Source: an uncultured candidate division Zixibacteria bacterium (GTDB lineage: Bacteria > Zixibacteria > MSB-5A5 > UBA10806). From it: 64,000 bases of DNA. Positions 15,248 through 52,849 of the stretch are shown here, in pieces. The position numbers and the translations under genes were made by a program. The first letter of the stretch is position 1, and every line of letters begins with the position of its first letter. Under the pieces are notes generated by a model, which did no database searches, was not told the DNA's origin, and worked only from the letters and a program-made list of their open reading frames with translations. The stretch covers positions 276,308-340,307 of the forward strand of contig CAWFQL010000017.1 of the NCBI GenBank assembly GCA_963817915.1, read 5' to 3'.

Positions 15248-15250
15248 ACT

Positions 15251-21122: not shown

Positions 21123-21322
21123 AAATTATACTTGACAATTTTGGTATGAACAATATCTTAGACGTAATTTGAATTGACGAAAGGAAACGCTTATCGTAAT
21201 TGGCTAAAGGGTAGTTGTAGAAAAGCGAAGAGATTGTAAAAAGGCTTTACCTACATGCCCAGTGGCTAATTTTTTGTCTTTGGCCGAATGGCCGAAGATG
21301 AAATGTATTCATCGGAGGATTG

Positions 21323-24300: not shown

Positions 24301-25351
24301 CGCGCTTACCGAGAACGAGGTTTCAGGTGAAATTACCGATGTTGCCGGCAATATTATGAGCGATTTTAACGGCACTGTTTGGGTTTCCGTTAAAGATGGA
24401 GCGACCTTAAGATCTGTGGCCCTGCTCGATCGATATAATAATCCGATATCTCCACCCCAATTCATAAGCTTTATTAAATCCGGCGCCACCATTTTTCATG
24501 GCCCTACGGATGTCGTCAATGGTCATTTTACTGGCCGATTTTTTACTCCGAAAGATATTTCTTATGGCAGCGCTGATGCCAGGATATATGCTTATGGTGA
24601 AAATGGGGTTTACGATGCCGTCGGAGTAGCAGATTCCCTTAGAATTTCTGGTTCAATGCCGACCGATCAAGATTCGACCGGCCCTGTTATACATCTATTT
24701 GTTGACGGGAGGCCGTTCAGACAAGAAATAACACAGGTTCCATCGGCTTTTGTACTTACAGCGGATATTACCGATGATCACGGGGTCAATATTACCGGTC
24801 AGTTGGGTCATGGAATAGTTTTAAGTATCGACGATGGCAGAGTATTAGAAATGGATATCACCGGCAACTTTAGTTACGGTAGAGGAAATTATCAGGGCGG
24901 TGTTTTGACATTCCAAACGCCCGAACTGCCGCTTGGACAGCATACTTTGTCTTTGAAGGCCTGGGATAATTTCAATAATTCCACGCTGACTAATTCAAAT
25001 ATTGAAGTGGTTTCAACTCAAAATCTTGCTATCTCCAATGTTATGAATTATCCGAATCCTGTGAAGGGAATCGGAGTGAATACATCATTCCAATACTGCC
25101 TGAATGAAAATGTAGATAAAATTATAATCAAAATATTCACTGAAGCGGGGAGAAAGATAAAGACGTTGGAATTTACAAGTCCGGATTATACGCAGATGGA
25201 TTGTCATCAGGTTGATTGGAATCTTAGAGATGGCGATGGCGATCCTATTGCCGATGGAATTTATTTATATAAAGTTATAGCGGAAAAGCAGGATGGGAAC
25301 GGTTCCCATTCGGAAGCTGACGATACCAGAAAATTAGTAATACTGAGGTAA
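21323..25351 (+). CDS. porU: PorU-like T9SS C-terminal signal peptidase / sortase (gingipain C25 family) with its own T9SS CTD
   Basis: GGAGGA RBS and signal peptide. C25-like catalytic His (LIIDWIGHGSAG) and Cys (LVFTASCSIGAFD). ~1340 aa. C-terminus NYPNPVKGIGVNTSFQYCL...IYLYKV is a CTD. Directly upstream of a PorV-like gene. Confidence 0.7.
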   Translation: MLCRKKLILLGQAFFSISILISISSASTIFDGDVEILKSDNSGVTLKYKVPSSSFTPFEQGNNKYHSLNIERTAQNRVEGQSIIPIKIVPLALPPGATAKIQVIDANYKDAEFKKLPPFFARSSKEEYDKAYEDASLKSTVTHSDPYIVSFDNLRGLKIARIGIPAIRYSENPPSLSMLQTITLRVDFVGGQSNLPVSFQHPGNAFNKIFSKVVANYDVGANWVAKEQKIALGASATSSVFDSASTWFRMELTTEGIYSIGWNQFRSLGIANPDVDIDPSRVRVFYGGGRELPPNNSTPRPEFREIPIQFIDANGNGVFDGLDLFVFYADGVDSWEYDSTLNNFIRYKNHYTSKNVFWLTIDGNFSGPAKRYPSWDGNPNGAYDVSTDSYTAMFNKEEDILFWKYSPIQQDYNDYFEWYWASGKSFSTSAQLYDVVSGGTAEIIVRHRAGNLSLTVNSSSATPMRQLPPFSIFSASNLRDGLNSITLQSVTNFYTDYINILYPRWLRTIDGNLRFSQPDTFGVVRYNLTNVDSDYLLLDISDKMNPVKIAGGSWSGQNLSFLDTVSAQSHKQYYISNKNRFKTPSSITTYQIDNLKDVNSSNNRADEIILTYDGFYDQAVRLAQHRQNVYGLATRIVKISDVYNQFSYGLLDAIAIRDFLKYAYENWQSPAPSYVVLLGDGNYDYRNYMGSSSHIYIPPYEYLPLFGSDLGMSDELFVYFGSYGNLDSDSNSIPDMMIGRISARSVQDASEMIDKIIDYDSNPDLGPWRNRVVVAADDNLHPPHDNDWNHTAQAEDLANHHVPNSFETGKIYLIEYPMGAGGEKPQAREALMSAYNQGSLIIDWIGHGSAGLWADEHIFRRIEDIPRLHNGKRLSLVFTASCSIGAFDFPAFESMAEELARTYGRGAIAVISATRGVYATSNGQFNNAVFDQLLNSDSVGIGAAMYIAKFLRQSGDSGTNTNDRVYVLFGDPAQLLQFPKYKVRFNSVPDSLAALTENEVSGEITDVAGNIMSDFNGTVWVSVKDGATLRSVALLDRYNNPISPPQFISFIKSGATIFHGPTDVVNGHFTGRFFTPKDISYGSADARIYAYGENGVYDAVGVADSLRISGSMPTDQDSTGPVIHLFVDGRPFRQEITQVPSAFVLTADITDDHGVNITGQLGHGIVLSIDDGRVLEMDITGNFSYGRGNYQGGVLTFQTPELPLGQHTLSLKAWDNFNNSTLTNSNIEVVSTQNLAISNVMNYPNPVKGIGVNTSFQYCLNENVDKIIIKIFTEAGRKIKTLEFTSPDYTQMDCHQVDWNLRDGDGDPIADGIYLYKVIAEKQDGNGSHSEADDTRKLVILR

Positions 25352-25409: not shown

Positions 25410-27986
25410 ATGAGGCAGTATAAATTAGTAATATTACTTTTATTGGCGATGTCAGCATTAGCCGCGGCCCAGGTTTCGCAAACTGCGGTCCAGTTCTTGT
25501 TGATAGCACCGGGGGCCAGGGCCGGAGGCATGGGAGAGACATTTATTGCGATTTCGGATGATGCCACGGCCGTACATTGGAATCCAGCGGGTCTTGGACG
25601 GTATCCGCTCACTGCTTCGTGGCTCGATTTTAACTCCGCTCCCGGCGATACAATTCAATCATTATCAATGGTTAAAAATAATTTGCCCGAAAATAATTAT
25701 CGTCAATATGATCTTTGGAGCATTATTAACGGTCACCTTACCAAATGGGACGGCGCTCACTGGGTTGCGGGCACGTTACAGCCATTGAGAGCTGGAGCTT
25801 CACTGGAATCAGTGATAATGCGCTATACCGGCTTGGGCGAAAACGAAGCGGCGCCATATATTGATAAATTGGCCAGAGCCAATAATACTATCATGCCTGA
25901 AACAATGGATTCATTGAAAACAGAAATAATGGCGGCTCTTCCTCAGGATTATTTATATAAAGAAGATCTCCAATATGGCTTTGAAAAACTCCATAAGGCA
26001 TGGCTTCAGCTTCGAATAAATGTCAAAGGATTTTCCGCAATTCGGAATGATATAAACAATGTCCTGGCTGATTCAATAGCCACCACCGATGAAATGGATA
26101 AAGTGACATTCGGTTTTGATAGAGGAATCGAAGCCAAGGGCGACAGAGAAGTCTGGCTGCCGTACGACTTGACTCTTCCGGATAAGATTAATTGCCTCAA
26201 TTCCGATGAAGAAATTCTTTATCTCGGAACCAATAATGGCTTATACAGATTCGATCCTCAAAAGAGCATCTGGTCATTTTTTACGGTCGCCAAAGATTCG
26301 CTGCCATCGGATAATATCACGGCGATTGAAAAAGGCTCCAAGAAAATGATGTATATAGGCACGTCAAATGGGCTGGTGAAATTCACCGGCAGGAATATTA
26401 CCAAATTCCCGCCCAATTCCGATGTGCCTACAGGTCAGATTGACGCTATTGCCGCGTCAAGCGATCGTGATGCCTGGCTGGCATCGGATGGCATCCTTTA
26501 TCACTATGACGGCGCCAAATGGAGCCAATTCAAGGAAAAAGAATTATCGATCGGGGAGAGCATTCCCAAAGTTGTCGAGAAATTTTATGGTGAAATAGGC
26601 ACTGTCATGTATGATACAGTTATGAGCATGGTAACTGCCTACAATTCAACAAAGGGAGATACAACTCAAACCGGGAAGCCGATAAAATTGCCGTATAATC
26701 TCGGATACAGAGGAAAGATAACAGCTCTCGGTGTCGATGAAAGATACCGTCTCTGGATCGGTACTACTTACGGAGTAAGTCTTTTCACCGGCGATGATTT
26801 CAAGCTATTTGGATACAAGATATATCAGGCGCCGGAGTCCACTTCAGTGCAGTCAGTTGCCGCTCAATATATAACCGATCGTGATCCTCAAAAGATCGAG
26901 CTGCTTTCATCGAAGATAAGGCAGTTTAACGGGCTTGAGTCCGATCAGATCAATTCCGGCAAAAAGCTTTTGGTTTATTCCAATTCACTGGGATCGGAAA
27001 TAAAAGCTATCAGACCAATTACCGGAAAAAAAGTTGCGGTCGCTACATCGTACGGCGCGGTCGAATATGATAATGGCAAATGGAGTCGAATTCAGAATCT
27101 GGATATTGCCAGGTCTAATGTCTCCAATATATATGCCAAGTCTGGCGATATGTGGTTTGCATCTCCTAAAAAAGTCTCGGTCTATGCCGCAGCCAAAAAA
27201 CAGGTGACATTCATGCATTCCAATTATCTGGTGCAGCTTGCCAGCGATCTTTATTACGATTTCTTTTCGATCGTATATCCAACAGCCGATTGGGGGACAT
27301 TTGGTTTCGGAGTTCATTTCATTTCATATGGAGAGCAACTGCGCACAAATGAAAACAATTTGCCCGAAGGCTCGTTTACTTCTTATGATATAGCGTTTAC
27401 AGTATCATACGGCACGAATCTAATGAACAACCTCTATGGAGGACTTTCAGTTCGCTATATAAATTCGCATCTTTCAGTGGTAGGCGCCGGTGCTGAAAGA
27501 GGTAAAGGTGTAGGGTATTCGCTGGCAGTTGATGCCGGCGTGATCTATGATATGACCCGCCGACTCACTCTGGCCGCGACCGTAACCAACCTCGGCCCCG
27601 ATATAGCCTATATCGATGCTGATCAGGCGGACCCGTTACCAAGAAAATTGGCGCTCGGTTTTGCCTATAAACTTATCGATTCGCCATTTAATAAATTGAC
27701 AGTTTTGGGCGAAGCCACAAAACTATTGGTTGATTTGAATCACAGTGTCAAGACGGAGATTGAAGAGATTATTCCGCATATCGGAATCGAGTACTGGTAT
27801 TCGAATTATGTGGCTTTAAGAGCGGGATATGTCTACGACAAAATCGGCGTGCAAAAATACTTTACTTTGGGCACGTCGCTGCAATACAGCAGTTATCGAT
27901 TTGATTTCTCTTATATTCCAGCGTCGAGCGAGGAGACTAATAGGTTGGCCAATACTATGCGTTTTTCCATGAATGTGGGGTTCTAA
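25410..27986 (+). CDS. porV: PorV(LptO)/PorQ-like FadL-type outer-membrane beta-barrel carrying a large inserted Reg_prop-type beta-propeller domain
   Basis: Signal peptide, then the PorV-family N-terminal motif QTAVQFLLIAPGARAGGMGETFIAISDDATAVHWNPAGLG. About 500 aa follow with repeats of the form (L/M)(Y/W)IGT..GL..F (EILYLGTNNGLYRFDP, MYIGTSNGLVKFTG, LWIGTTYGVSLFTG, and so on). The C-terminal ~280 aa is a beta-barrel ending ...MRFSMNVGF. Confidence 0.55.
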   Translation: MRQYKLVILLLLAMSALAAAQVSQTAVQFLLIAPGARAGGMGETFIAISDDATAVHWNPAGLGRYPLTASWLDFNSAPGDTIQSLSMVKNNLPENNYRQYDLWSIINGHLTKWDGAHWVAGTLQPLRAGASLESVIMRYTGLGENEAAPYIDKLARANNTIMPETMDSLKTEIMAALPQDYLYKEDLQYGFEKLHKAWLQLRINVKGFSAIRNDINNVLADSIATTDEMDKVTFGFDRGIEAKGDREVWLPYDLTLPDKINCLNSDEEILYLGTNNGLYRFDPQKSIWSFFTVAKDSLPSDNITAIEKGSKKMMYIGTSNGLVKFTGRNITKFPPNSDVPTGQIDAIAASSDRDAWLASDGILYHYDGAKWSQFKEKELSIGESIPKVVEKFYGEIGTVMYDTVMSMVTAYNSTKGDTTQTGKPIKLPYNLGYRGKITALGVDERYRLWIGTTYGVSLFTGDDFKLFGYKIYQAPESTSVQSVAAQYITDRDPQKIELLSSKIRQFNGLESDQINSGKKLLVYSNSLGSEIKAIRPITGKKVAVATSYGAVEYDNGKWSRIQNLDIARSNVSNIYAKSGDMWFASPKKVSVYAAAKKQVTFMHSNYLVQLASDLYYDFFSIVYPTADWGTFGFGVHFISYGEQLRTNENNLPEGSFTSYDIAFTVSYGTNLMNNLYGGLSVRYINSHLSVVGAGAERGKGVGYSLAVDAGVIYDMTRRLTLAATVTNLGPDIAYIDADQADPLPRKLALGFAYKLIDSPFNKLTVLGEATKLLVDLNHSVKTEIEEIIPHIGIEYWYSNYVALRAGYVYDKIGVQKYFTLGTSLQYSSYRFDFSYIPASSEETNRLANTMRFSMNVGF

Positions 27987-27990
27987 GATA

Positions 27991-30900
27991 GTGAATTTAT
28001 CGAAACGCACTTTAATAATTGCTATTGGCATACTATTTTTGGTCTCGGCCCACTTTTCATTTGCCCAAAAGATTCTCAAGCCGCTTTCATTGAGATCAAT
28101 TCCCAGAGAAAGTACGGTTAAGAGTGACGAATTCCGATCCGGCGTATCCGAAAAGAATTTGCTGGGATTGGAGCGGCCGTCGCTTTATGCATTGCCGACT
28201 GCGAAACACGGTATGCCATTAACTGCCGCGAGCATTATGTCTGATTCGATCAGGGTATTGGTTTTGAAGGTTGAATTTCAGAAAGAAATACCGGATGATC
28301 CATACACGACCGGCGATGGCACATTCGATCTTAGAACATATGATCAATTTGTAGCCGCGGAAGGACATTATATCGATCCCGCGCCTCATAATACATCATA
28401 TTTCAATGCTCACATGCAAGCTTTGCACAATTATTGGTATTATGTTTCCGAAAAGCAGCTGCAGATTCAATGGGATGTATATCCTCAACCAGAAAGCGTT
28501 TCGATTCAATTGCCGGTGCCAATGGCCTATTACGGATCGAATATGAATTGGGAAAGTATCGGCGACAGACTCGGTAATTTTCTGATCCGCGCAATTACAC
28601 TTGCCGATTCATTATATCCTGAGATCGATTTCGGCCGTTACCAGGCGGTCATTGTTTTCCATGCTGGTTCGGATCAACAAAATAATCTTTCCTATTTCCC
28701 TCAATTCGATACGCCATACGATTTCTATACAGGGTTCCTAAAGCTCAGCAAGCCAGTTATGGTGGATGATAGCACAGTTGCTATTCAGGAGGGGACGATA
28801 CTCCCGGAATTTGCAAGTCAGGATAACCGTATTACCGCCCTAAATGGTGTAGTAGCCCATGAATTTGGACATCAATTAGGACTCGTAGACCTATACAAAA
28901 CCGACAATTTCTTTACGCAGGTTGGCGATTTTTCGCTGATGGACAACAATGGAATGTCGGTCGGTGTCCAATTCCCTGATATAGGGCCGACAGTCGGCGG
29001 TACGATGCCTGTTTACCCCGATGCCTGGTCGAGGGCTTATCTTGGATTCGATATACCTCGTGAAATTACCGATGGGAATAATGTGCCAATTTCAGCGGCC
29101 GCTCAAAATCATGGAAGTACAGAGATAATCAAAGTGCCAATTACCGAATACGAATATTTCCTGATTGAAAATAGACAGCAGGACGCCGACACATTGGATC
29201 CATCCAACCCATTTGCTGATATTTTAGTTGGCGATCCGGCTACAGGAGTGATTTTAGGCCCGGGGTTTGCATATTTTCAGGGAAACGATACAATTTTGGT
29301 TTCCGATGGCGAATACGATCGGATTACTCCCGGCAATGGTGCCGTAATATGGCACGTCGATGAAGCAGTCGCTTATCAGGATACTCTCCACAATGGCGAT
29401 AATAACTTTTTTAATAATACACTGCAATGGGACCCCGCCAGGAGATTTCTGTCATTGGTAGAAGCTGATGGCGTAATCGATTTCGGAGGGTATTACTACC
29501 GGGGTTATGGCGATGATAATGATTATTTTAAGGGACCGAATAGGGTATCATTTACGCCCAGCACTAATCCATCATCGAATTCCATTCTGGGATGCGATTC
29601 TCATATTTCTGTTACGGATATTTCCAATTCGGATACTTTGATGTATGTTGATATAAATATCGATTGGCTGATGGCCGGATGGCCCCAAATGGGATTGCCC
29701 AATCAAATGTCCGATCCGATAATAGCCGATCTTCTGTCGAATGATACTTCGGAAGTTTTGATTACGGCGTCCAATAGATTGCTTATCTGGAAGCCAAATG
29801 GACAAAAATTTATTTCCAATGGCGATTCCGTAGGAATCTTGAGATACGATAGCAGTATCGCAATCTATCCCTGGGCTATTGCCGCCGAATGCGATAGTAC
29901 GATTTCGACCAGGCCCGTGATTTTCGATTATAATGGCGACGGCGAAAATGATATCGCGTTGACTTCGAATTCGGGACGATTGTACGCGTTTAATCCTCGT
30001 GATAACAACTCCGATGGCCGACTCGATCCGATTGTCGGTTTCCCTCTGGATCTGCATTTAAATACGCGGTTGGCTCCGATAACAGTGAATTTCCTACCAG
30101 GCGCTGAGAACGAGCTCATCGCATTCGATGATTCCGGCAAGGTGCATATGGTTTATAATGTCCTGGAAGACAGTGTCGTGTACAATTTTAACGGGATAGT
30201 AATTTCTGCCGCCGCGTATCAGGTTGCCGGGAAAAACGTAATCGACGCTTTGGTCAGTCAGCCAGGCGGAACGAGCCTGAATCGAATCGCGGCCGATTCC
30301 GGGACTGCGGTTTTCGCGCAGGAATTTTCGCCGGTAGCATTTCCATTTTATCATTATGTTCCCTCTATACCGGTTTCTATAATTGCAGTCGATATAGACA
30401 GGGATGGAAATTTGCCCGAAATCCTGATTACATTTTCCTACAAAATAGAGCTTATAAAAAATGACGGTTCAGTCGCGTGGTCTATCGATACTGATCGTGA
30501 GCTTTATCATACCGCAATTGGCGATATTAATTCCGATGGTTATCCTGAAATCGTGATAGGCGCCGAATCGGCAATATACGCATTTAATTATACAGGCTCT
30601 TTAATGCAGAATTTCCCCATCGATATGAACAAGTATAAACTCGGTGGAGCGATAATATCGTCGCCGATATTGGGGGATATTGATAACAATGCAGCACCGG
30701 AAATTATAGTCGGTTTGCCGGGCGGCGGCATTTACGCATTTGATCAATACTCTGACCGTGTCGCAGGATTCCCATTGCCGAGTTCATTTGGAGTCAGTAA
30801 CTCGGCGGCGTTAGGCGATTTAAATAATGATGGGGAAATTGACCTGGTCACGGAGGAAAATTCGGGATTTGTCAAGGCCTGGAATTTATCAGCGCCATAC

Positions 30901-31278
30901 GAATTCGCGAATGTTCCCTGGGGCATGGCAGGCGGCAATATCTTCAATAATTCTTATCTTTCGACAGTCTATCAAAAAAATATTGCGGCGACCGATCAGC
31001 AGTTGCCGGTGAATTCCGTATTCAATTATCCCAATCCCGCGACCAACAGTACAACCATCCGTTTTTACCTGAACAGCAATTCGAATGTGAAGATAGAGAT
31101 GTTTGATTTGATGGGCGACAGGATTCACGACGCAACCATTGCCGGGCAGGCGCACGCGGATAACGAGTATGTTTGGAATTGCCAAAATGTAGCTTCAGGA
31201 GTATACTATTGTCGTGTTGAAGCCGCGAATAATACGGGAAAAACATCGAGAATGATTAAAATTGCCATCGCCAAGTAG
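27991..31278 (+). CDS. Secreted M6 (immune inhibitor A-like) zinc metallopeptidase with FG-GAP/VCBS repeats and T9SS C-terminal sorting domain
   Basis: Signal peptide; HEFGHQLGLVDLY zincin motif; at least five FG-GAP-like repeats (FDYNGDGENDIALT, VDIDRDGNLPEILI, IGDINSDGYPEIVIG, LGDIDNNAAPEIIVG, LGDLNNDGEIDLVTE). C-terminus VFNYPNPATNSTTIRFYL...VYYCRV is a CTD. Confidence 0.7.
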   Translation: MNLSKRTLIIAIGILFLVSAHFSFAQKILKPLSLRSIPRESTVKSDEFRSGVSEKNLLGLERPSLYALPTAKHGMPLTAASIMSDSIRVLVLKVEFQKEIPDDPYTTGDGTFDLRTYDQFVAAEGHYIDPAPHNTSYFNAHMQALHNYWYYVSEKQLQIQWDVYPQPESVSIQLPVPMAYYGSNMNWESIGDRLGNFLIRAITLADSLYPEIDFGRYQAVIVFHAGSDQQNNLSYFPQFDTPYDFYTGFLKLSKPVMVDDSTVAIQEGTILPEFASQDNRITALNGVVAHEFGHQLGLVDLYKTDNFFTQVGDFSLMDNNGMSVGVQFPDIGPTVGGTMPVYPDAWSRAYLGFDIPREITDGNNVPISAAAQNHGSTEIIKVPITEYEYFLIENRQQDADTLDPSNPFADILVGDPATGVILGPGFAYFQGNDTILVSDGEYDRITPGNGAVIWHVDEAVAYQDTLHNGDNNFFNNTLQWDPARRFLSLVEADGVIDFGGYYYRGYGDDNDYFKGPNRVSFTPSTNPSSNSILGCDSHISVTDISNSDTLMYVDINIDWLMAGWPQMGLPNQMSDPIIADLLSNDTSEVLITASNRLLIWKPNGQKFISNGDSVGILRYDSSIAIYPWAIAAECDSTISTRPVIFDYNGDGENDIALTSNSGRLYAFNPRDNNSDGRLDPIVGFPLDLHLNTRLAPITVNFLPGAENELIAFDDSGKVHMVYNVLEDSVVYNFNGIVISAAAYQVAGKNVIDALVSQPGGTSLNRIAADSGTAVFAQEFSPVAFPFYHYVPSIPVSIIAVDIDRDGNLPEILITFSYKIELIKNDGSVAWSIDTDRELYHTAIGDINSDGYPEIVIGAESAIYAFNYTGSLMQNFPIDMNKYKLGGAIISSPILGDIDNNAAPEIIVGLPGGGIYAFDQYSDRVAGFPLPSSFGVSNSAALGDLNNDGEIDLVTEENSGFVKAWNLSAPYEFANVPWGMAGGNIFNNSYLSTVYQKNIAATDQQLPVNSVFNYPNPATNSTTIRFYLNSNSNVKIEMFDLMGDRIHDATIAGQAHADNEYVWNCQNVASGVYYCRVEAANNTGKTSRMIKIAIAK

Positions 31279-31307: not shown

Positions 31308-32144
31308 ATGAAGAAAAGCATTCCAATTATAATTATGATAGGTGTCATATTGTGTCTTGCGGCTGAATCCTTTGCGGGTGGAATAACTAAAACTACATCT
31401 GCTAAAGAACTATTTTTGCAGAATGGATTAACATTGGAAAAGTATTTCAGCCGAAAATTATATTTAGCCAAAAAAGATGATTTAACAAATACTGATGTTT
31501 ACGAGTATGGTACCAAATCGCCTATGAAGGCCTTCGGCCTATCGTTGTTGGTGCCGGGTGCTGGTCAATATTATGTGGAGGCATCGAGGATAAAAACCGG
31601 CGTATTTTTGGGCGCCGATATTCTTCTATGGTCCGGATATCTCGTTTATCATCATAAAGGCGCCAACGGGGAAAAGGATTATCGGAGTTTCGCTGACCAG
31701 CATTATCTCTGGCAGACCTATGATCAATGGTGGTGGTCGCTGCCAGAGCCTACAAGAAACCACTATTCCCATTCTTTGCCGTGGGATCAAACTTTGAATC
31801 AGCCGATTAGAAATCGAGAGTATTATGAAAATATCGGGAAGTATGATCAGTTCCAGGTCGGCTGGGATGATGTTGGATTAAACAATCCTCCCGATTCGAC
31901 AAATAGCGTTACTTATGGCAATAGATTGCTTTATCTTAATATGCGCAAGAAGGCCAACGATTATTTTTCAAATGCCACGACCATGGCCATGATTTCTATT
32001 GCCAACCATATTATCTCGGCATTTGATGCCGCAATTGGCGCCAAGAAATTCAACAGAGGCGGCAAGCAATATTCAATGGCTCTAAAAGCCAAGAGATATA
32101 ACGGCAAAACAATACCATATCTTTCATTGGCGATGAAGTTTTAG
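31308..32144 (+). CDS. Hypothetical exported/membrane protein, paralog A (shared A-F-G-L-S-L-L-V-P-G-A-G-Q-Y-Y-V motif; ends ...AMKF)
   Basis: Signal peptide; the motif FGLSLLVPGAGQYYVE is followed by a hydrophobic helix; C-terminal Phe. Confidence 0.4.
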   Translation: MKKSIPIIIMIGVILCLAAESFAGGITKTTSAKELFLQNGLTLEKYFSRKLYLAKKDDLTNTDVYEYGTKSPMKAFGLSLLVPGAGQYYVEASRIKTGVFLGADILLWSGYLVYHHKGANGEKDYRSFADQHYLWQTYDQWWWSLPEPTRNHYSHSLPWDQTLNQPIRNREYYENIGKYDQFQVGWDDVGLNNPPDSTNSVTYGNRLLYLNMRKKANDYFSNATTMAMISIANHIISAFDAAIGAKKFNRGGKQYSMALKAKRYNGKTIPYLSLAMKF

Positions 32145-32153
32145 GTGGGAGAA

Positions 32154-32900
32154 ATGGCCAGGATAGTATCAATCATTCTCATATTGACGATATCGCTATC
32201 AGGCAGCGGTTTCGCTCAGACTATTTCTCAGAAGGTAATGTCATCGATACAAAAGCCGAACGACGATGATGGTCTTAATGAGCCAACTTACGCCCCTGAT
32301 AAAGCAAATGCCGATAAGTCTAAATATAAGGCGTTGGGCCTTTCGATTTTATTACCAGGCGCGGGACAATATTATGTTGGCAGCAAAAAGAAGATGGTGA
32401 TATTTGCCTCGGCGGAAGCCCTGATATGGTCCGGTTTTTTTGGATTCAGGATGTACGGATCATGGAAAAAGGAAGACTACAAAGCCTGGGCTGCATTTCA
32501 CGCTGGCGCCGATATTAACGGCAAATCTGATCGTTTCTTCGAAAAAATGACATACTATGATAATGTTAATGAATTTAATCAGCTTGAGCTTCTTTACGAA
32601 GGTACCAACGCCCAGCCATTTCCATCCAATTCATCATATTACTGGAATTGGGATTTCAAATCTTCGAAAGATCATTATCGAAACCTGCGGAATCTCAGCA
32701 AGACGGCATATCGTCGATCGCTATTATTTATAGGGGCGGCAATTGCCAATAGAATTCTTTCCGGAATCGATGCTTATAGAGCGGCGAATGCCTATAATAG
32801 CGGCAAAGAATTCAGTGAAAAAGGGTGGCAGATATACAGCTCATCCGATAGCCCATTGGGGGCTGGTGGATTTGAAATTGGTCTTGCCCTCAAGTTTTAA
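32154..32900 (+). CDS. Hypothetical exported/membrane protein, paralog B (same PGAGQYYV motif; ends ...LALKF)
   Basis: LGLSILLPGAGQYYVGSKKKMVIFASAEALIWSGFF parallels paralog A. Tandem duplication. Confidence 0.4.
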   Translation: MARIVSIILILTISLSGSGFAQTISQKVMSSIQKPNDDDGLNEPTYAPDKANADKSKYKALGLSILLPGAGQYYVGSKKKMVIFASAEALIWSGFFGFRMYGSWKKEDYKAWAAFHAGADINGKSDRFFEKMTYYDNVNEFNQLELLYEGTNAQPFPSNSSYYWNWDFKSSKDHYRNLRNLSKTAYRRSLLFIGAAIANRILSGIDAYRAANAYNSGKEFSEKGWQIYSSSDSPLGAGGFEIGLALKF

Positions 32901-32904
32901 ATTG

Positions 32905-33846
32905 ACTGCGGCTTTTTTCTGCCTTTTATGGCTGAATTGCGCGTCGACCAGCAAAGCGCCTGCGCAATTAGAAAATACAATCTCAGGCCCTATAATAAAT
33001 CTCCGCCTCGCAAATTCCATAGGCCCCTTTATCGATGAAAATAACTCATTTACTGAGCCCGCGGGAATAACATTCAACGCTTTAGGCGAAATTTATGTCT
33101 CAGACAGGCTGAGCAATTCGATATATAAATTCTCACCTGAACTAAGGCTGTTGGCTCGGGAGGGCGGTGTTGGAATGTCTTCCGGCGGTTTCAATAAACC
33201 ATTGGGGATCGCCTGCGATGCGGCACTAAATCTCTATGTCGCCGATAATGGCAATCGGCAAATTCAGATTCTCGACCGCGATCTTCATTTTGTTAATACT
33301 ATAAGTTCTTACTATAATGACAAAGGCGAGTCTATCAATTTCGATTTACCATCGGATATTTCAATAGACAGGGAAGGCAATCTCTGGATCGCCGACAACG
33401 ACAAGATATTAGAAATAAACCCATTCTATAATTTGACGCTCGAAATATCAAATAGAGTGCCCGGTGGAGTATTTATTGGAAAGTCATCATCGGCTGAAGT
33501 ATCCTCTCAAAATATGGTTGCTGTAGGCGACCCGGATAACGGCGATGTTCTGTTGTTATCAATATACGGCAATCTCACGAAGAGGATTGCAGCCGGTAAT
33601 GCTTATGCGGTTGCCTGGGACAATTATGGAGAAATTTGGGTAGCTGACCCTGAATCCAATCGAATCTCGGCTTATGATAAAAATGGAAGGGTCTTATTTA
33701 TTTTTTCTGATACTGAGCGAGGATCCAGTCCGGCTTGGATTGCATTTGATTCTAACGGCAGATTGGGGGTAGCTGATAAGGGGCTTCGCAAAATACGTAT
33801 TTACGATATTATCCGCGGTACAAAGCAGCCTGACCTCCCCAAATAG
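32905..33846 (+). CDS. NHL-repeat (six-bladed beta-propeller) lipoprotein
   Basis: TTG start, signal peptide with lipobox LWLNC. Repeated NHL-like units (PAGITFNALGEIYVSD, PLGIACDAALNLYVADNGN.QIQILD, DISIDREGNLWIADN, AWDNYGEIWVADPESNRISAYD, IAFDSNGRLGVADKG). Confidence 0.65.
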   Translation, partial: TAAFFCLLWLNCASTSKAPAQLENTISGPIINLRLANSIGPFIDENNSFTEPAGITFNALGEIYVSDRLSNSIYKFSPELRLLAREGGVGMSSGGFNKPLGIACDAALNLYVADNGNRQIQILDRDLHFVNTISSYYNDKGESINFDLPSDISIDREGNLWIADNDKILEINPFYNLTLEISNRVPGGVFIGKSSSAEVSSQNMVAVGDPDNGDVLLLSIYGNLTKRIAAGNAYAVAWDNYGEIWVADPESNRISAYDKNGRVLFIFSDTERGSSPAWIAFDSNGRLGVADKGLRKIRIYDIIRGTKQPDLPK

Positions 33847-33852
33847 CTTTTA

Positions 33853-36800
33853 ATGAATAAATGGCCAGTCATATTATTTTCAATTCTACTTTCATCTAAC
33901 ATCTTCGCCCAAATTCCGGATACAAGCGTCATAATCCATGGCAAGGGTTCACGAGGCCCATATCAGATCGGTTTCAAGAACCTTATAAGTGGCTCCTCGA
34001 AGATAATAAGGGATAATATCGAGCTCTCTCCCGATAGCTTTTCAGTTATATATGAGGATGGCCTGATAAATCTTTCCAGACCATTAAATATCGAAGATTC
34101 TATAATCGTATTTTTCAAATATTTGCCTCTTAATCTTGAATCGACCTACTATCTCCATCGCCCCGTCGAAGCAGGTGAAGCTCCCTCAGAAAATTATCAA
34201 TCCGAAGTTAAAACCAGCGCGAGTGCAGGTAATGATCTCTCAATCGTGGGAAGCAAAGGTTTTTCGATTGAAACCGGCGGAGGAAACGGGCTTTCACAAT
34301 CGTTGAATTTGACAATCAAAGGAAATCTACTGCCGGGCTTAAAGACGTCGGCGCACATATCTGATAAATCTCAAGGCAATTCTTCCGTCACTCGAAAATT
34401 AAATGAATTGGATAGAATTTATATCGAAGCAGAGTCGGATCACTTTAAGGGAATATTCGGCGATTTTGATTATATCCATTCCGGTTCCAATTTCATGAAT
34501 TTCCAACGAAAATTATCCGGGTTGAATATGAAATATTCCAAAGCGAATACCAATCTCGGCGCGGCCGCCGCATTTTTCCCTGGAGACTATTCTTCAATCG
34601 CAATCAATGGTCGCGATGGCCGTCTCGGCCCATACTATCTAACCGATATTGGAGGGCGTCAGGGGGCGCAGGTCTTGCCTGGCTCGGAACGAGTATATCT
34701 TGATGGCGTTCTTCAAAAGCGAGGTAATGAAAACGACTATGAGATTGATTATGAGGCCGGCAGCATTCAATTTGCGCCTTCAAAGGTGCTGCGGAATGAG
34801 AGCCGGATTGTCGTAGATTATGAAATTGCCCGCGAAGAATATAATCGTTCATTCTACACAATCTCCGGCGGATCGTCGCCTATCGGAAGCTTAAAAATCA
34901 CTGCAGATCTGGTTCAGGAGGGTGATAATAAAAATTCGCCAAAGAGCTTTGAGATGACGTCTGATAATCTTCAGATTTTGCAAGATGCCGGGGCAGAAAG
35001 GCTGAATGCCGCAAGAAGCGGTGTGCAATTTGTAGGGACGGGATTAGGAAATTACACTCTTGCCACCGATACCCTGGGCAATCCTTTTTACATTTATGCC
35101 GGCCCTAATCGAGGCGATTATAATGTCAGTTTTTCGTTTATAAGTACGAATGGAGGTTCATATAAATTTCTCGGCACCGGTATTTATCAATATGGTGGCA
35201 AACTTGCGGGCGACTACGAGCCGATTATTCTTATTCCTCTTCCACAAACAAAGCGGTATGCCTCGGTTGGTTCGTCATGGTCATCGGCCGACAGCAATTT
35301 AACAATCGAAGCCGAACTTGCGGGCTCAATGTTCGATAGAAACAGCTTGTCGGATAAGGATGCCTTGAATAAGGGTGTTTCGTCATTCGTAGCGGCGAAT
35401 TATCGGAAAAAGCTTTACTCCGATGATGGTTCGCTTATGGTAAACGCCAAGGCAAGAAATATTGGCGGAAGTTCGATTTTCCCCGGGAGAATAGACGATG
35501 TCGAGCGATATCGAATTTATGATATCGATCCAAATTCATCCGCGAATGGCGAGAAAGTTCAGGAAATTGGAATCGTAAATTCATTTAATCGCACAAACAA
35601 AATCCAATATCTTATAGGTCATTTAAGCCGCCCATTGATCAGCGACAGGGTTCATCATTTGGGAGAGGCAAATTGGAATCTGTTCGATATGCTCGATCTT
35701 TATGGGCGAATAGAAAAAACTTCAGGCAGCAGGGATTGGTGGAAGCGTGGTGGCGCAATGACAGCCAACTTCGCCCGCCTTCAGCCTTCATTTCGAATAG
35801 ATTATGAAAGACAAAATGGAGCCGGCGGTTTTAAATTCAATGAATTGACAGGGATAATTCCGGCCACGTATCTGCAATCAGTAACGGGCAGCACTGAAAT
35901 CGTTTACAGAATAGAGCAAGCATTAGATAATCAAATCAATATCTGGAAGCCGAAATTCAAGTCGGGCTCATTCAGCCAGCAGATAAGTTTTTTGCCGGGG
36001 AAGGCGGGATTTTCAGGCGACTTATCCGGAGTATATTACAAAAAACACTATTCCGATTTTTCCGGGAGTAATGTCGAACAAAAAACAGGCTGGGGCAGGC
36101 TATCATTCAGCGACCCTCAAAGCAGGGGGAGTTTCAGCGTCAATGAACGATTGAGCTCATCCAACGAACGACTGCAAGCGCAAAACTATATCTTATGTGG
36201 GACAGGGCAAAGGGGAATATCGCTTTGAAGACGGTGAATATATTAAGGATCAGCAAGGAGACTATGTTCTCATTATAGAAGAATTAGGCGAAGGCTCGAA
36301 AATCAGCGATATTTCTACCGAGCTTAACGCGTCGATCGCGCCATTTTTGCTGGCGGGAGCTGGACAATCCTCCCGGAGCTCGATAGGAAAATTAAATATA
36401 GAAACCGATCTTTCTTACAGGCAGAAAAAATCATCCGATATCCTTGAGTGGCGCGATTTCTATCCATGGAGAACAACCACTCTCCAAAATATTGTCTATC
36501 GAAATGGTCAGCTGAATTTTAGAATATATTATTACCCGCCTTTTGAAAGACAACGATTCAAATACTCCGGTTCAAGATCATTTGAGGCCGGAAGTCCTTT
36601 TGCCAATGAAACTACAAACGGCAATTCTCGATCGGACGAAATTTCATGGGCATTTCCGGCGAGCGCGAAGATCGATATTATTGTCAATGGATCATTGTCA
36701 TCAAGACAAAATTCTACGAATCTTTCCGTCTATTCCATTGATAGCCGGCTGGTTTCCATGTCTGCTGATTATCGTTTCGCAGATGGCTGGACTGTAAATT

Positions 36801-37135
36801 TAAAACCTTCATACGAAACGGCCAAGCAAAAGACTACCTCCGTTAAGTCGCAAATACCATCGATGGGATTGGGATTGGTTTGGAATCTAAAGAATCGGGG
36901 ACAGGTATCCACGGTCCTCGAATATTCCCAAATTACTTCATCTCCCAAGGGCTCATATATCCCATTTCAACTGGCTCAGGGCAAAAACGAAGGTAATAAT
37001 TATCTGGCAACCGTCTCGGCCAGAATGGAAATCACCAAAAACGGGCGACTTGATTTCAGCTACAGATACGAGAATTTTCCCAAAAGGCCGCTTCGCCAAA
37101 TTATGCGGCTGGAGTTTACGGCGTTATTCAGATGA
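33853..37135 (+). CDS. Large (~1090 aa) beta-rich outer-membrane protein of unknown function; two ORFs (33853..36228 and 36197..37135) joined by an apparent +1 frameshift near 36205
   Basis: Cleavable signal peptide (NIFAQ). The sequence reads through ...ERLQAQNYIL / YVGQGKGEYRFEDGEY if one base is removed. The C-terminal region has alternating aromatic/hydrophobic beta-strand patterns (LDFSYRYENF...RLEFTALF). Confidence 0.45.
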
Positions 37136-37186
37136 AAAGATCTTCTCACAATTATTTCGGCTATCTATTTTCTAACGTCTATTAGT

Positions 37187-38797
37187 ATGGCCAAATCGGG
37201 ATTTGAGATTGCGGGCAATAAGCTATATTCGAAAACCGAACTTGCCAGACTGTTAAATTACTCCGTGGGGAACGATTCGATTTTAGCTCAATTAAGATCG
37301 CTTTATGGTCAAGCAGGATATTTCTCGGCTGATTTTAGGTGGCAGAGCGAAAACAATGGAATCAAAACCCTGCATTTTTCCGAAGGAAGCCCGACATTGA
37401 TCGGGAATTTGGATGTGCGATTAATACCAGAGAACAGCGAAATCAATTTTGAGGATATAATCAGGCAAGTGACTGGTGAAATTGCCTCGAAGAACTTCTT
37501 GAATTCCTTTTCCGCGGAATGCATCTCCCGCCTCGCTGATATCGGGATGCCATTTGCTCAAGGCACCTGGAGAGATTTTTCATTCGATGAATCCGGGCGA
37601 CTTTCGGCTGTATTTGAAATACTGCCCGGGCCGGTGATTTTTATATCGGGCTTCGAGTTTGATGGTATTTCGAGAACTCGCCATCCGACCTTGGAAAGAG
37701 CTGCTGATATTAAAATAGGACAGCGATATTCCGAATCTATTGTGGTTCGATCGCAGGATGAATTGGATAAAATGCCGTTTATTGAAATTTCGTCACCGTT
37801 TATTCTGCAGCAGTCATCTGCCGGTGATTCTTGTAAGATCATATATCATCTGAAAGAACTCCCATCGACGAAATTTGACTTTTCATTGGGATTTCTAAAT
37901 CAAGATAGAAAGGCGCAGGTGGCTGGCAGATTATTGCTCGATTTCGGCGATATTATGGGGTCGGGCAAAAGCGCGGGGCTTTTCTGGGAGAAAAAGGATA
38001 AATTTTCGAGCCAATTAAGAATCAGATATCATGACCCATTTGTATTGGGCACCAGATTCGGCTTAAGCCTCGAAGCATTTCAAAATGATCATGATAGCCT
38101 TTTTCTTGAAACAGGTGGATCTGCAGGTATTGGCCATAATTTCTCAGGCGGGCTCTACGCCGAGGCTCAATTAACAGTTCAAAGGACAGAACCCGAACCA
38201 GGGAGCATAGTTTCGTCGTCAAGCAGTAATAAAATAACGGCCGTATTTGGATATTCGAATTTGGATTTTAAGGATAATCCATCGGCGGGGTATGAAGCAT
38301 TGACATCACTGAGCAATAAATACCGATCGAATGGCAGGGTAGTTTTAGGCAATCCGGCTACCCATTTAACTTCGGTCGAACTTAAGGGAAACTATTACTT
38401 GAGAATTATTGGTCGACTGGTACTCGAGTTGGGGCTAAACGGCTGGGGAATCGTGAATAATGACGGTGATATTTCAGCGGATGAGCTTCGTTATATAGGC
38501 GGCTCCGATGATTTACGAGGATATTCATTCCAACGTTTTCCCGCGTACCGATATTTTATTACCACATTCGAATCCAGATTATTATCGGGTCGTGCCGGAA
38601 GAGCCTATATCTTTATGGATATTGCCACCATAAAATCCTCGCCGAATTCTGGCTCGAGATATAAAATATATCCCGGATATGGAATAGGAATCGCGGCCCC
38701 AACCACATTGGGACAGGTCAAGGTGGAAGTAGGTTGGGGGAAAAGCGGATTCCCGAAAGAGGCGATAGTGAATTTCGGATTGGCCGGAGGATTTTGA
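37187..38797 (+). CDS. Omp85-family (BamA/TamA/TpsB-like) outer-membrane protein with N-terminal POTRA-like domain
   Basis: POTRA-like IAGNKLYSKTELARLL...GYFSADF; conserved loop-6 motif YIGGSDDLRGY; ends ...VNFGLAGGF. No signal peptide in the called ORF. An ATG at 37132 overlaps the upstream stop (ATGA) and encodes MKRSSHNYFGYLFS in another frame, so the true start may be 37132 with one more indel. Confidence 0.55.
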   Translation: MAKSGFEIAGNKLYSKTELARLLNYSVGNDSILAQLRSLYGQAGYFSADFRWQSENNGIKTLHFSEGSPTLIGNLDVRLIPENSEINFEDIIRQVTGEIASKNFLNSFSAECISRLADIGMPFAQGTWRDFSFDESGRLSAVFEILPGPVIFISGFEFDGISRTRHPTLERAADIKIGQRYSESIVVRSQDELDKMPFIEISSPFILQQSSAGDSCKIIYHLKELPSTKFDFSLGFLNQDRKAQVAGRLLLDFGDIMGSGKSAGLFWEKKDKFSSQLRIRYHDPFVLGTRFGLSLEAFQNDHDSLFLETGGSAGIGHNFSGGLYAEAQLTVQRTEPEPGSIVSSSSSNKITAVFGYSNLDFKDNPSAGYEALTSLSNKYRSNGRVVLGNPATHLTSVELKGNYYLRIIGRLVLELGLNGWGIVNNDGDISADELRYIGGSDDLRGYSFQRFPAYRYFITTFESRLLSGRAGRAYIFMDIATIKSSPNSGSRYKIYPGYGIGIAAPTTLGQVKVEVGWGKSGFPKEAIVNFGLAGGF

Positions 38798-39639
38798 TGA
38801 ATCGAATCTGGGGAGCTATTCTGATTTCCCGTCCGCTAAATTGCCTGATTACATTTCCTGGCAGTATGGTCGGGAGCGATAATAGCAAATAATATTTATT
38901 TTTCATGGAAGATTGTCTTTGCCGCAATTTCGGCATCATTGATAGCCGCGTTCGGGAATATCATTAATGATATTTGGGATATTGCTGTTGATAAGATAAA
39001 TAAACCCTATAGACCATTGGTTAAGGGTTCACTGAGTGTTAGGATTGCCAAAATTCTTGCTATCATATTTGCGCTTTTGGGAGTAATACTGTCGTTAAAA
39101 ATTAGCGTGACAGCGACAATTCTTGCTTCCGCCGTGACAGTATCACTCCTCGTGTACACACCAATTTTCAAGAGGATTCCATTTTTGGGCAATATATTGA
39201 TAGCATTCATCTCGTCATTGGCGTTTGTATATGGCGGAATAGCTGTGGGCAAGCCCTTCGGTGCAATTATTATTGCAACTTTCTCATTTCTACATCATTT
39301 TGGACGCGAAATCGTAAAGGATATTCAAGATAGGGCGGCCGATGATGCAGTAGGTATTAGAACCGGGGCAACCGGATCTAATATCGTAATTGCCAGAAGC
39401 TGGCGCAGATCGTTTTCGCGGTTTTAATTATCGCTACATTTATACCTTATGCCACGAGTATCTATAATTTTGGATATCTGATTTTAGTGCTTATAGGTGT
39501 AGATTCAATTTTGGTATTTGCTATTTATATTATTTCCTCGACTGCCGATGAAGTTGCTATGCGAAATTTATCCGGATGGCTCAAGGCGGCCATGCCTTTC
39601 GGGATATTGGCTGTGTATATCGGCAGCCGCGGATATTAA
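38797..39639 (+). CDS. UbiA-superfamily membrane prenyltransferase, short (~270 aa) form, interrupted by two apparent frameshifts (~38875 and ~39395)
   Basis: N-terminus MNRIWGAILISRPLNCLITFPGSMVG (frame 1). Then NIINDIWDIAVDKINKPYRPLVKG (the NDxxDxxxD Asp-rich motif 1, frame 2; called ORF 38939..39427). The C-terminal TM helices continue in a third frame to 39639 (...LAQIVFAVLIIATFIPYA...ILAVYIGSRGY). Confidence 0.55.
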
Positions 39640-39829
39640 AAATACCGGATTTGTTCGGCATTTCCGTCACGAATGATATTTCGATAATACCACGAGCCCT
39701 TGACATACAGTTTCGATCGATATATTTTGTAAAATTCGCCAAATTTGTGTTCGATTGAAGGCGGAGTTGGGGGGAACAAAGGTTGTCTTTTGAGTGTATA
39801 ATCGACCTGAAATAGGAGGCTTAATAATG

Positions 39830-40813: not shown

Positions 40814-40814
40814 A

Positions 40815-41696: not shown

Positions 41697-41700
41697 TATC

Positions 41701-51750: not shown

Positions 51751-51773
51751 AATATAGATGAAGGATTATTAAG

Positions 51774-52844: not shown

Positions 52845-52849
52845 TCGAT

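Follow-up and report, generated by a model that had tools for sequence, protein, structure and literature searches.

The window analysed here, a stretch of 64,000 nucleotides from an uncultured Zixibacteria bacterium, contains on its forward strand a tightly packed nine-gene envelope operon, the distal part of which includes the genes for an NHL-repeat lipoprotein, a predicted giant outer-membrane beta-barrel and an Omp85-family protein (Table 1). The intergenic distances, read in order from the PorU gene to the UbiA gene, are 58, -14, 29, 0, 1, 6, -4 and -1 nucleotides (negative values being overlaps), and the start codon of the UbiA gene overlaps the Omp85 stop codon in the sequence TGATG; a scan of the locus for promoters and terminators returned counts at the level expected from shuffled sequence. 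An earlier note, made from the letters of this DNA, had described three linked outer-membrane genes at this place, and all three were found on the forward strand with domain matches. [quoted passage not shown] Elsewhere in the window (positions 5099-8041), a separate LptA/LptD-like protein is encoded.

Table 1. Genes of the envelope operon, with positions counted from the first nucleotide of the window
Product	Coordinates	Strand	Match or remark
PorU, T9SS sortase, C25 peptidase family	21320..25351	+	NCBIfam NF033707 (T9SS_sortase); opens the cluster
PorV/PorQ-family outer-membrane protein, 858 aa	25410..27986	+	NF033709 (PorV_fam)
M6-like metalloprotease, carrying FG-GAP repeats and, at its C-terminus, a T9SS type A sorting domain	27973..31278	+	
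DUF5683-like envelope protein a, with signal peptide and C-terminal end AMKF	31308..32144	+	Pfam DUF5683
DUF5683-like envelope protein b, paralogue of a	32145..32900	+	Pfam DUF5683
NHL-repeat beta-propeller lipoprotein	32902..33846	+	Pfam NHL; lipobox
Predicted giant outer-membrane beta-barrel ('BIG'), ~1093 aa, one frame-broken gene	33853..37135	+	
Omp85-family protein, 554 aa once the frame is corrected	37132..38797	+	Pfam Omp85 and POTRA
UbiA-family prenyltransferase	38797..39639	+	Pfam UbiA, E 7.6e-31

The T9SS genes of the cluster encode PorU (E 2.6e-206; 687.6 bits against a cut-off of 420) and a PorV-family protein (235.2 bits against a cut-off of 90), the latter being matched by PorV models at residues 8-63 and 591-858 and carrying an insertion of approximately 530 residues, with a Reg_prop repeat lying between the two matched parts. 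The M6-like protein matches NF052323 (E 1.3e-108, below the equivalog cut-off) and Por_Secre_tail (40 bits, against cut-offs of 23 and 27), retains an intact HEFGH motif at residue 296 and may be either a T9SS cargo protein or a PorZ-like partner. The two DUF5683-like proteins match their Pfam model below its cut-off (E 1.5e-4 for a and E 6.9e-5 for b), and their genes keep their position in the cluster in 16 loci. The co-encoding of PorU, a PorV-family barrel and a propeller-rich sorting-domain protein resembles the PorU-PorV-PorQ-PorZ attachment complex of P. gingivalis, from which the present cluster differs in the long insertion within its PorV protein; we know of no description of an attachment-complex operon that includes an NHL lipoprotein, DUF5683-like proteins, an Omp85 protein or a giant barrel. 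The P. gingivalis 'Aim' operon (PorG-UppS-BamA-Skp; PMC12773653) was considered as a counterpart and rejected, as it is a different locus that corresponds to housekeeping bamA.

The product of the NHL gene scores 69.5 bits against a Pfam NHL cut-off of 20 and carries a signal peptide that ends in a lipobox cysteine (FFCLLWLNC followed by AS, as read from the sequence), and is thereby assigned as an NHL-repeat lipoprotein; its homologues all possess a lipobox (LIGC, FSSC, IASC). An in-frame TTG at 32902, one nucleotide past the upstream stop codon, is followed by MTAAFFCLLWLNC, and lies one codon before the position (32905) that was given in the earlier note. A homologue of this lipoprotein is encoded directly 5' of the barrel gene in 17 loci, and the pairing has been seen in three unrelated contexts, two of which are without PorU (locus L010, E 3e-16, and the Cloacimonadota loci L003 and L004, E 5.5e-7).

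The open reading frames at 33853-36228 and 36197-37135 are parts of a single gene, as demonstrated by full-length homologues of 1087-1142 amino acids (45-54% identity) that cover 98-100% of the joined 1093-residue sequence, and by blastx comparison with Zixibacteria loci, in which the subject runs on unbroken through the frame change at 36173-36210. The responsible one-nucleotide insertion can be placed near 36192-36196, where the DNA reads TAT ATC T TAT GTG, and the Y-x-x-V-G spacing that is typical of the family is restored once one extra T is taken into account. In the main frame, homology to Omp85 proteins can likewise be followed to 37130-37148, 5' of the ATG (37187) at which the gene had been called, and removal of one A from the AAAA run at 37135-37138 yields MKDLLTIISAIYFLTSISMA followed by KSGFEI from an ATG at 37132, which overlaps the stop codon of the barrel gene as ATGA. 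Homologues of the Omp85 protein (547-556 amino acids) all begin with a signal peptide of the form M[RK]xxxIISA...A followed by xEIxGN. These results uphold the earlier note on both counts: that the large protein had been split by a single-nucleotide indel, and that correction of a second such indel would return a signal peptide to the Omp85 protein.

Structure prediction for the joined large protein, which had been suggested as a check, produced an AlphaFold2 model (pLDDT 85, pTM 0.74) with approximately 40 long strands, in which the chain is predicted with good confidence to consist almost wholly of long antiparallel strands, together with a beta domain at the N-terminus and two small domains inserted into the chain. 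A C-terminal aromatic signal is also present, and the model suggests an integral outer-membrane protein that would form a single giant barrel on the scale of the T9SS translocon SprA/Sov (PDB 6H3I, 6H3J, 8GL6 and 8GL8), whose barrel of 36 strands is, by one description, the largest that is known (bioRxiv 10.64898/2026.03.07.710327). When the PDB was searched with Foldseek, the top four matches were all SprA chains (E 1.8e-11 to 1.9e-8), the match ranked after them had an E of 1.7e-7, and the TM-scores were low (0.23-0.26). The SprA model TIGR04189 gives a local match at residues 271-324 (E 1e-4); the same local match was found in 22 of 42 diverse members of the family (best E 5.3e-8), and falls at the same model positions (approximately 600-652) in the two members for which coordinates were listed. 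Membership of the SprA/Sov family itself was rejected, both on score (19.6 bits against a cut-off of 200) and on length (1093 against approximately 2300 amino acids), and sequence-profile searches of the PDB, made with the whole family and with the conserved inserted domain, returned chance-level matches and no solved F. johnsoniae SprA chain. The suggestion that the large protein might prove to belong to a known family such as SprA, with no need of an Omp85 partner, is borne out in part, in that SprA provides its closest solved structures and in that most of its relatives (see below) have no adjacent Omp85 gene.

Searches for other identities were consistently negative: no Pfam family matched the large protein at E <= 0.01, including those for two-partner secretion (haemagglutination activity) and for TamB/DUF490, and the TpsA and TamB identities were rejected; no OstA/LptD domain was matched, which removed LptD; and a single weak Autotransporter match (E 0.0023, below the cut-off) was regarded as generic barrel similarity. 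The protein is instead one of a very large and uncharacterised family from the Fibrobacteres-Chlorobi-Bacteroidetes (FCB) group, which comprises 5800 clusters at 50% identity and lacks a Pfam model, and whose members are mostly labelled hypothetical in their source databases (while some UniRef entries title members of approximately 1154 amino acids 'Cell surface protein SprA'). Every lineage in which the family was found lies in or near the FCB group, and, among outer-membrane families, its members show a likeness in sequence or fold only to the T9SS translocon SprA.

Beyond the recurring local match to its model, the likeness to SprA consists of a giant single-chain barrel (here predicted) of comparable strand number, an occurrence of both proteins in the FCB group, and the proximity of the present barrel gene to those for PorV and PorU; in Flavobacterium, PorV docks on SprA. 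The differences are these: at approximately 1100 amino acids, as opposed to 2300-2400 for SprA, the present barrel is half as long and would therefore be without SprA's large extracellular cap; its proposed partner is the NHL lipoprotein rather than the Plug or PPI proteins; no sequence similarity to solved SprA can be detected; and the family is named separately in Cytophagales genomes.

The Omp85 protein scores above the cut-offs of both Pfam Omp85 (PF01103; 36.4 bits against 24) and POTRA (22.4 against 21.3), and its model displays three POTRA domains and 16 strands across residues 247-553. The DDLRGY motif in loop 6 and the C-terminal GGF, from which the earlier note had correctly recognised the protein, are both conserved columns in the alignment of its homologues, and together with the barrel and POTRA matches place it in the Omp85 superfamily. 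Its best PDB sequence matches are BamA chains (E 1e-26, over POTRA3-5 and the barrel, with the alignment covering BamA only from residue 176 or so onward), TamA is matched more weakly (2.5e-9), and TpsB chains are absent from its 50 sequence matches in the PDB. These comparisons identify it as a BamA-type paralogue with three POTRA domains, whereas a TpsB protein would have two, together with an N-terminal plug helix. It shares with BamA and TamA a 16-strand barrel, the loop-6 pattern (V/I/L)RG(F/Y) and a C-terminal aromatic residue, while its POTRA domains are homologous to POTRA3-5 of BamA and, as in TamA, three in number. Housekeeping BamA was rejected as an identity (TIGR03303, 67.3 bits against 297.15; three POTRA domains rather than five). 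Since the signal peptide is without a cysteine, the protein is not a lipoprotein of the TamL type found in Bacteroidota; unlike TamA, it has no TamB gene nearby; and unlike both BamA and TamA, it is encoded beside the gene for one specific giant barrel, within a T9SS cluster.

The distribution of this arrangement was examined in 90 loci, 80 of which were ranked by their similarity to the Zixibacteria query using a single pattern, so that this larger set is biased towards Zixibacteria and Ignavibacteria. The gene order of the window is also found in Zixibacteria RBG_16_53_22 (L002) and in locus L007 (29% barrel identity); L008 (26%) keeps the order through the barrel gene, with the Omp85 gene absent from the cluster; and in L005 (24%) the order is retained with a single DUF5683-like gene, a further protein that bears a sorting domain, an NHL match that is no more than marginal (E 0.0019) and a BamA-like protein of 440 amino acids. 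The same order recurs in loci L011-L018, L037, L064 and L086, and a UbiA gene also lies 3' of the Omp85 gene in L002, L007 and L011. Gene order is thus conserved across deep divergence in Zixibacteria-like lineages, down to a barrel identity of 24-29%. In 13 loci the Omp85 and barrel genes are neighbours; one of these loci (L081) encodes a trio of a 282-amino-acid protein, the barrel and Omp85, and has neither PorU nor PorV. In approximately 60 of the 90 loci (from Ignavibacteria, Melioribacteraceae, Bacteroidota metagenome-assembled genomes, Rhodothermaceae and Penaeicola), the barrel gene stands amid housekeeping genes with no PorU, PorV, NHL or Omp85 gene nearby, and members of the family occur without PorU or Omp85 in Ignavibacteria, Cytophagales and Rhodothermales. 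In Ignavibacteria, the gene is flanked on its 5' side by an ABC ATPase and three MacB/FtsX-type permeases, and on its 3' side by NUDIX, PfkB, MtnA, RecO, HtrA and AroC; nothing related to the T9SS was found near the barrel genes of Rhodothermaceae and Penaeicola. Because so many loci are without T9SS neighbours, the link to that system may be specific to certain lineages. A search of the literature returned nothing on type IX secretion in Zixibacteria or on an operon that combines PorU, PorV and Omp85, and the broader T9SS literature held nothing relevant to the barrel family.

The interpretation that we tentatively favour, while regarding it as somewhat short of probable, is that the locus encodes a T9SS-linked complex of barrel and lipoprotein with its own dedicated Omp85 insertase, a function that is read from gene context. 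In such a complex, (i) the NHL beta-propeller lipoprotein would be a stoichiometric partner of the barrel and would plug or cap its very wide lumen, or provide it with a periplasmic adaptor, comparable in this to LptE for LptD, or to the Plug protein and PorV for SprA; (ii) the co-encoded Omp85 protein would assist the folding and insertion of this unusually large assembly; and (iii) the complex would cooperate with PorV and PorU late in type IX secretion, at the outer membrane, that is, in the exit, hand-over or surface attachment of proteins bearing a C-terminal sorting domain. The comparison with LptD and LptE draws upon a conserved lipoprotein gene that lies immediately 5' of a large-barrel gene; a lipoprotein that plugs or caps a barrel is a plausible logic, and co-assembly of the two would need a machine of the BAM type. 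Unlike LptE, the lipoprotein here has a different fold, that of a beta-propeller, and its interaction with the barrel is putative.

A general role for the barrel in envelope housekeeping, either in outer-membrane biogenesis and homeostasis or in transport of a substrate unrelated to the T9SS, is the strongest competitor, although we consider it unlikely. Under such a role the adjacency to porU and porV would reflect co-regulation of envelope genes rather than a shared machine, and the Omp85 protein would still act as an assembly factor. The great size of the family, the usual occurrence of its genes alone among housekeeping genes, the loci from Rhodothermaceae and Penaeicola, and the L081 trio are all in keeping with it. 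However, several separate lineages keep the order from PorU to Omp85 at such low barrel identity, which is not easily accounted for unless the genes are functionally coupled, and both the resemblance to the T9SS translocon alone and the position of all lineages found so far in or near the FCB group, where the T9SS occurs, also weigh against it.

A bolder form of the favoured interpretation, which we hold to be rather improbable, would make the barrel, whose approximately 40 predicted strands would equal or exceed those of SprA, a second or (in Zixibacteria-like phyla) the primary T9SS pore or sorting platform, gated by the NHL lipoprotein, served by PorV and PorU and built by its own Omp85 protein. 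More doubtful again is the narrower proposal that the barrel is the T9SS pore of Zixibacteria-like lineages, a half-size SprA without the large extracellular cap, with the NHL lipoprotein as its gate and with direct service from the co-encoded PorV. It would account for the SprA chains at the head of the structural matches, for the recurrence of the local SprA-model match within the family, for the company of PorV, PorU and a sorting-domain cargo protein, and for a predicted strand number at or above the 36 of SprA. Against it, members of the family are carried by Cytophagales, which are expected to carry canonical SprA as well, and the family would thus not simply be a replacement for SprA. 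In addition, a 2025 paper in Nature (PMC12611786) states that Chlorobiota are the only FCB phylum without SprA, which suggests that Zixibacteria may have it. Canonical SprA was sought among the open reading frames of at least 1400 amino acids in the 90 loci, a search that covered gene neighbourhoods rather than whole genomes, and none was present; the reading frames of that size encode sorting-domain proteins, a histidine kinase and an AAA protein.

To our knowledge, work on type IX secretion has been confined almost entirely to Bacteroidota, with SprA regarded as the sole outer-membrane pore of the system. If the link drawn here is functional, it would add a component or an alternative pore to that system, would offer a natural system (with a dedicated Omp85 protein) for the assembly of very large barrels and barrel-lipoprotein complexes, and would provide a name and a testable role for a large block of proteins now labelled hypothetical, which have cultured carriers in Algoriphagus, Echinicola, Belliella (Belba_3780 of Belliella baltica) and Melioribacter (M. 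roseus). If it is not, the family would still represent a large and unstudied class of giant outer-membrane proteins.

That the locus is instead decaying, with real frameshifts that leave the barrel, Omp85 and UbiA genes as pseudogenes in this genome, appears very unlikely. The UbiA gene contains two further frame changes (near 38856 and 39350), such that four fall within 3.2 kb (36.2-39.4 kb), and the remaining 20 kb or so that were compared with Zixibacteria homologues are clean, a clustering that decay might produce. However, a split is also present in the DNA polymerase I gene (at 16.8 kb), each lesion fits an indel of a single base without aligned residues being lost, in-frame stops and other signs of decay are not seen, protein identity flanking each junction is as high as elsewhere, and the source contig, at approximately 594 kb, suggests a long-read assembly. 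The frame changes are probably assembly errors.

Finally, the view that corresponds to the resemblance proposed in the earlier note, a two-partner or TamA/TamB-like system in which the large protein is the substrate or passenger that the Omp85 protein exports or assembles, could draw on the adjacent and translationally coupled genes and on the TamA-like number of POTRA domains, and is already largely refuted, being scarcely credible for a large protein that is without the hallmarks of TpsA or TamB (as the same note had rightly remarked), that is predicted to be a membrane-embedded barrel throughout, with a C-terminal aromatic signal, rather than a beta-helical passenger or a periplasm-spanning TamB-like groove, and that has no TamB/DUF490 match among its neighbours, and for an Omp85 protein that sides with BamA over TamA and TpsB, is not of the TamL type and is missing beside most members of the barrel family. 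A weaker form of that view, in which the Omp85 protein assembles the large protein, survives within the favoured interpretation of a barrel-lipoprotein complex with a dedicated insertase.

The large protein (~1093 aa) was found to belong to a big, unstudied family of predicted giant barrels; the modelled fold and, in some lineages, the conserved gene neighbourhood tie it to type IX secretion (T9SS). The earlier note had grouped this protein with an NHL lipoprotein and an Omp85 protein as a candidate outer-membrane translocation module resembling two-partner secretion or TamA/TamB; its observations (three genes, two of them with broken frames) were borne out, while its interpretation stood only in part. 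The three genes lie in a cluster running from the T9SS sortase PorU to UbiA, and all substantial ORFs within 21.3-39.6 kb are on the + strand, with tiny or negative intergenic gaps.

Genes of the barrel cluster, and a separate LptD-like gene, in the window
Feature	Position	Strand	Support or remark
LptD-like gene	5099-8041		distinct from the large protein
PorU sortase	21320-25351	+	NF033707, 687.6 bits (cut-off 420)
PorV/PorQ-family protein	25410-27986	+	858 aa; NF033709, 235 bits (cut-off 90)
M6-like protein	27973-31278	+	FG-GAP repeats, T9SS type A sorting domain
DUF5683-like paralogue (weak)	31308-32144	+
DUF5683-like paralogue (weak)	32145-32900	+
NHL protein	32902-33846	+	TTG start at 32902
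Large protein	33853-37135	+	homologue coverage
Omp85 protein	37132-38797	+
UbiA prenyltransferase	~38797-39639	+

The large protein is the product of a single gene: homologues of 1087-1142 aa span 98-100% of the joined 1093 aa at 45-54% identity, and in blastx comparisons with syntenic Zixibacteria loci the subject continued unbroken through the frame change at 36173-36210, where the junction (TAT ATC T TAT GTG) carries a single surplus T without which the family's Y-x-x-V-G spacing is regained. The Omp85 signal peptide was similarly regained from the ATG at 37132, by taking one A out of an AAAA run, as MKDLLTIISAIYFLTSISMA followed by KSGFEI; homologues (547-556 aa) begin with a signal peptide and then EIxGNxL, and main-frame similarity reaches 37130-37148, upstream of the called ATG. 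The NHL protein and its homologues have a cysteine at a lipobox-like position. Because UbiA (two further frame changes) and DNA polymerase I (split into 15817-16812 and 16844-18514, the DTET exonuclease motif reading through an apparent stop) also carry frame breaks, the frame changes are probably assembly indels. The clustering of four single-base changes (barrel gene, Omp85 start and two in UbiA) within 3.2 kb (36173-39400) is odd, with ~20 kb of neighbouring sequence clean in the same homologue comparison.

Pfam contained no family matching the large protein, and NCBIfam gave just two weak local matches, the stronger to the model (TIGR04189) of the T9SS outer-membrane translocon SprA (19.6 bits, aa 271-324). 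In the AlphaFold2 model (45 sequences; pLDDT 85, pTM 0.74) the signal peptide precedes a small beta domain at aa 23-90, which a disordered linker (aa 93-126) separates from the remainder. This remainder, aa 130 up to the C-terminal end, is made of long strands, most of them joined by short connections, and is broken by one inserted domain at aa 253-317 and another at aa 364-465. The model's secondary-structure string holds 42 strand segments; since two short segments resemble the tip of a long hairpin, the number of membrane strands would be ~40. In Foldseek the top four matches were SprA chains (E 1.8e-11 to 1.9e-8), followed by TbpA (E 1.7e-7), all with low TM-scores (0.23-0.26). A local TIGR04189 match recurred in 22 of 42 diverse family members (best E 5.3e-8), which matched no other outer-membrane family, and spans the family's best-conserved motif, GPY...VLxG[ST]ExVYLDG...RG..NDYxIDY..GxIxF. 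Neither profiles of the family nor one of the TIGR04189-matching domain retrieved the solved SprA chain of F. johnsoniae. With the sequence link to SprA thus thin, consisting of a weak, local match, the large protein was rejected as a SprA by membership; in fold and scale, it comes closer to a SprA than anything else.

Searching 1.84 billion representatives with a family profile gave 5800 clusters at E <= 1e-3, of which 2659 reached E <= 1e-30, and almost all of the best 150 matches listed were 1090-1230 aa with end-to-end alignment. Named members annotated 'hypothetical protein' derive from Zixibacteria, Cloacimonadota, WOR-3, Rhodothermales and Cytophagales, and a search with the Penaeicola member showed it to extend throughout Cyclobacteriaceae (Algoriphagus, Echinicola, Belliella baltica Belba_3780, Indibacter), where several UniRef entries for the ~1154-aa members are titled 'Cell surface protein SprA'. 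A literature search found no paper on the family. In a 2026 preprint (bioRxiv 10.64898/2026.03.07.710327), SprA, with 36 strands, is still described as the largest known beta-barrel.

In the Omp85 model (AlphaFold2, 9-sequence alignment, pLDDT 80), the signal helix is followed by three alpha/beta units that resemble POTRA domains (aa 25-83, 89-164 and 170-242) and then by sixteen strands (aa 247-553). In a search with its family profile BamA chains came top (E 1.2e-26), aligned from approximately BamA residue 176 (POTRA3-5 plus barrel); TamA scored E 2.5e-9, and no TpsB chain was among the 50 matches listed. The two-partner-secretion and TamA/TamB reading consequently failed, the Omp85 protein having three POTRA domains and being BamA-like and the large protein being a predicted barrel; TpsB and TamA (with TamB) identities for the Omp85 protein were rejected, as was that of a housekeeping BamA (67 bits, far below the equivalog cut-off of 297) and, since the signal peptide is without a cysteine, that of a TamL-type lipoprotein. 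The protein is an Omp85 paralogue of the insertase type; it looks ordinary for this known superfamily, and it is its genomic setting that is unusual.

Gene context was compared across 90 loci, with ORFs classed by phmmer against the window proteins and neighbouring genes clustered; 80 came from a genome scan that used one peptide pattern and ordered loci by their likeness to the Zixibacteria query; context proportions are therefore not a census. As far as the contigs reach, the complete PorU-to-Omp85 order was present in Zixibacteria RBG_16_53_22 and other Zixibacteria-like MAGs (L002/L013, L011, L012, L014, L017, L037), and also in L007 (29% barrel identity), L064 and L086. Locus L005 (24%) keeps the order with a single DUF5683-like gene, an additional sorting-domain protein, a 231-aa protein marginally matching an NHL profile (E 0.0019) and, as final gene, a 440-aa BamA-like protein. 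A zinc-ribbon protein stands where Omp85 is expected in L008. The barrel gene there is followed (13270-18173) not by an Omp85 gene but by genes for this zinc-ribbon protein (496 aa), a propeller protein of 526 aa, a protein of 312 aa and, last, another small PorV-like protein; by eye, the C-terminal ~80 residues of the propeller protein resemble a T9SS sorting domain. In L081 the barrel is accompanied by a 282-aa protein and an Omp85-like one, with neither PorU nor PorV present, and NHL homologues directly precede the barrel gene in the non-T9SS contexts of L010 (E 3e-16) and Cloacimonadota L003/L004 (E 5.5e-7).

The barrel gene stands alone in ~60 loci (Ignavibacteria, Melioribacteraceae, Bacteroidota MAGs), with an ABC ATPase and three MacB/FtsX-type permeases upstream and NUDIX, PfkB, MtnA, RecO, HtrA and AroC downstream, and likewise in Rhodothermaceae and Penaeicola. 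In Ignavibacteria and Melioribacteraceae this neighbourhood is envelope-flavoured and T9SS-free: within ~6 kb each side (L019-L090) the permease paralogues are Lol-like, an L,D-transpeptidase (YkuD) gene lies immediately 5' in 10 loci, and the periplasmic protease HtrA is encoded ~3 kb downstream. One main rival explanation is accordingly a general envelope component with a lineage-specific T9SS neighbourhood; the other is that, in phyla outside Bacteroidota, the barrel is itself the secretion pore.

Well supported are: (i) the existence of the family of predicted giant barrels; (ii) a frequent lipoprotein gene beside it; (iii) an adjoining BamA-type paralogue in several deep lineages; and (iv) a constant location, in the same lineages, at the 3' end of the PorU-PorV operon. 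From these we infer that the NHL lipoprotein and barrel may form one complex, with the Omp85 protein as its putative dedicated insertase, that would act late in type IX secretion, in its outer-membrane steps. By standard barrel geometry, ~40 strands would enclose a lumen comparable to that of SprA; speculatively, such a barrel would need a plug, for which the lipoprotein with its six-bladed propeller and the inserted domains are candidates.

Within the cluster, the PorV-family protein (the T9SS shuttle; usually 330-390 aa) matches PorV models at residues 8-63 and 591-858, and the ~530 residues between hold a Reg_prop (two-component regulator propeller) repeat; Zixibacteria-like clusters keep this long form (857-940 aa), and the L005 PorV has a normal 329 aa. 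The top NCBIfam match of the M6-like protein, under cut-off, was 'T9SS-dependent M6-like inactivated metalloprotease'; because HEFGH is intact at aa 296 it may be an active protease, and its repeats and sorting domain could suit a PorZ-like role. The DUF5683-like paralogues have signal peptides, a GAGQYY motif and C-termini ending in KF, and in 16 loci the pair is conserved, flanked by the M6-like protein on one side and the NHL lipoprotein on the other. The UbiA start overlaps the Omp85 stop (TGATG), and UbiA also comes after Omp85 in L002, L007, L011 and L013; a cluster-tied polyprenyl-linked step is conceivable.

Elsewhere in the window, a BshC (bacillithiol biosynthesis) homologue (55990-57285), unrelated to the cluster, follows a TolC-HlyD-AcrB efflux operon (50386-55942). 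A complete aerotolerance-type operon (MoxR, DUF58, BatA, BatB, BatC-like TPR, BatD; 39794-47201) begins after a ~150-nt gap downstream of the cluster and is syntenic in Zixibacteria loci. The LptD-like protein (980 aa, with LptA/LptC-like and LptD-like matches) adjoins a probable T9SS cargo, a 923-aa protein (2186-4957) that carries a T9SS type A sorting domain.
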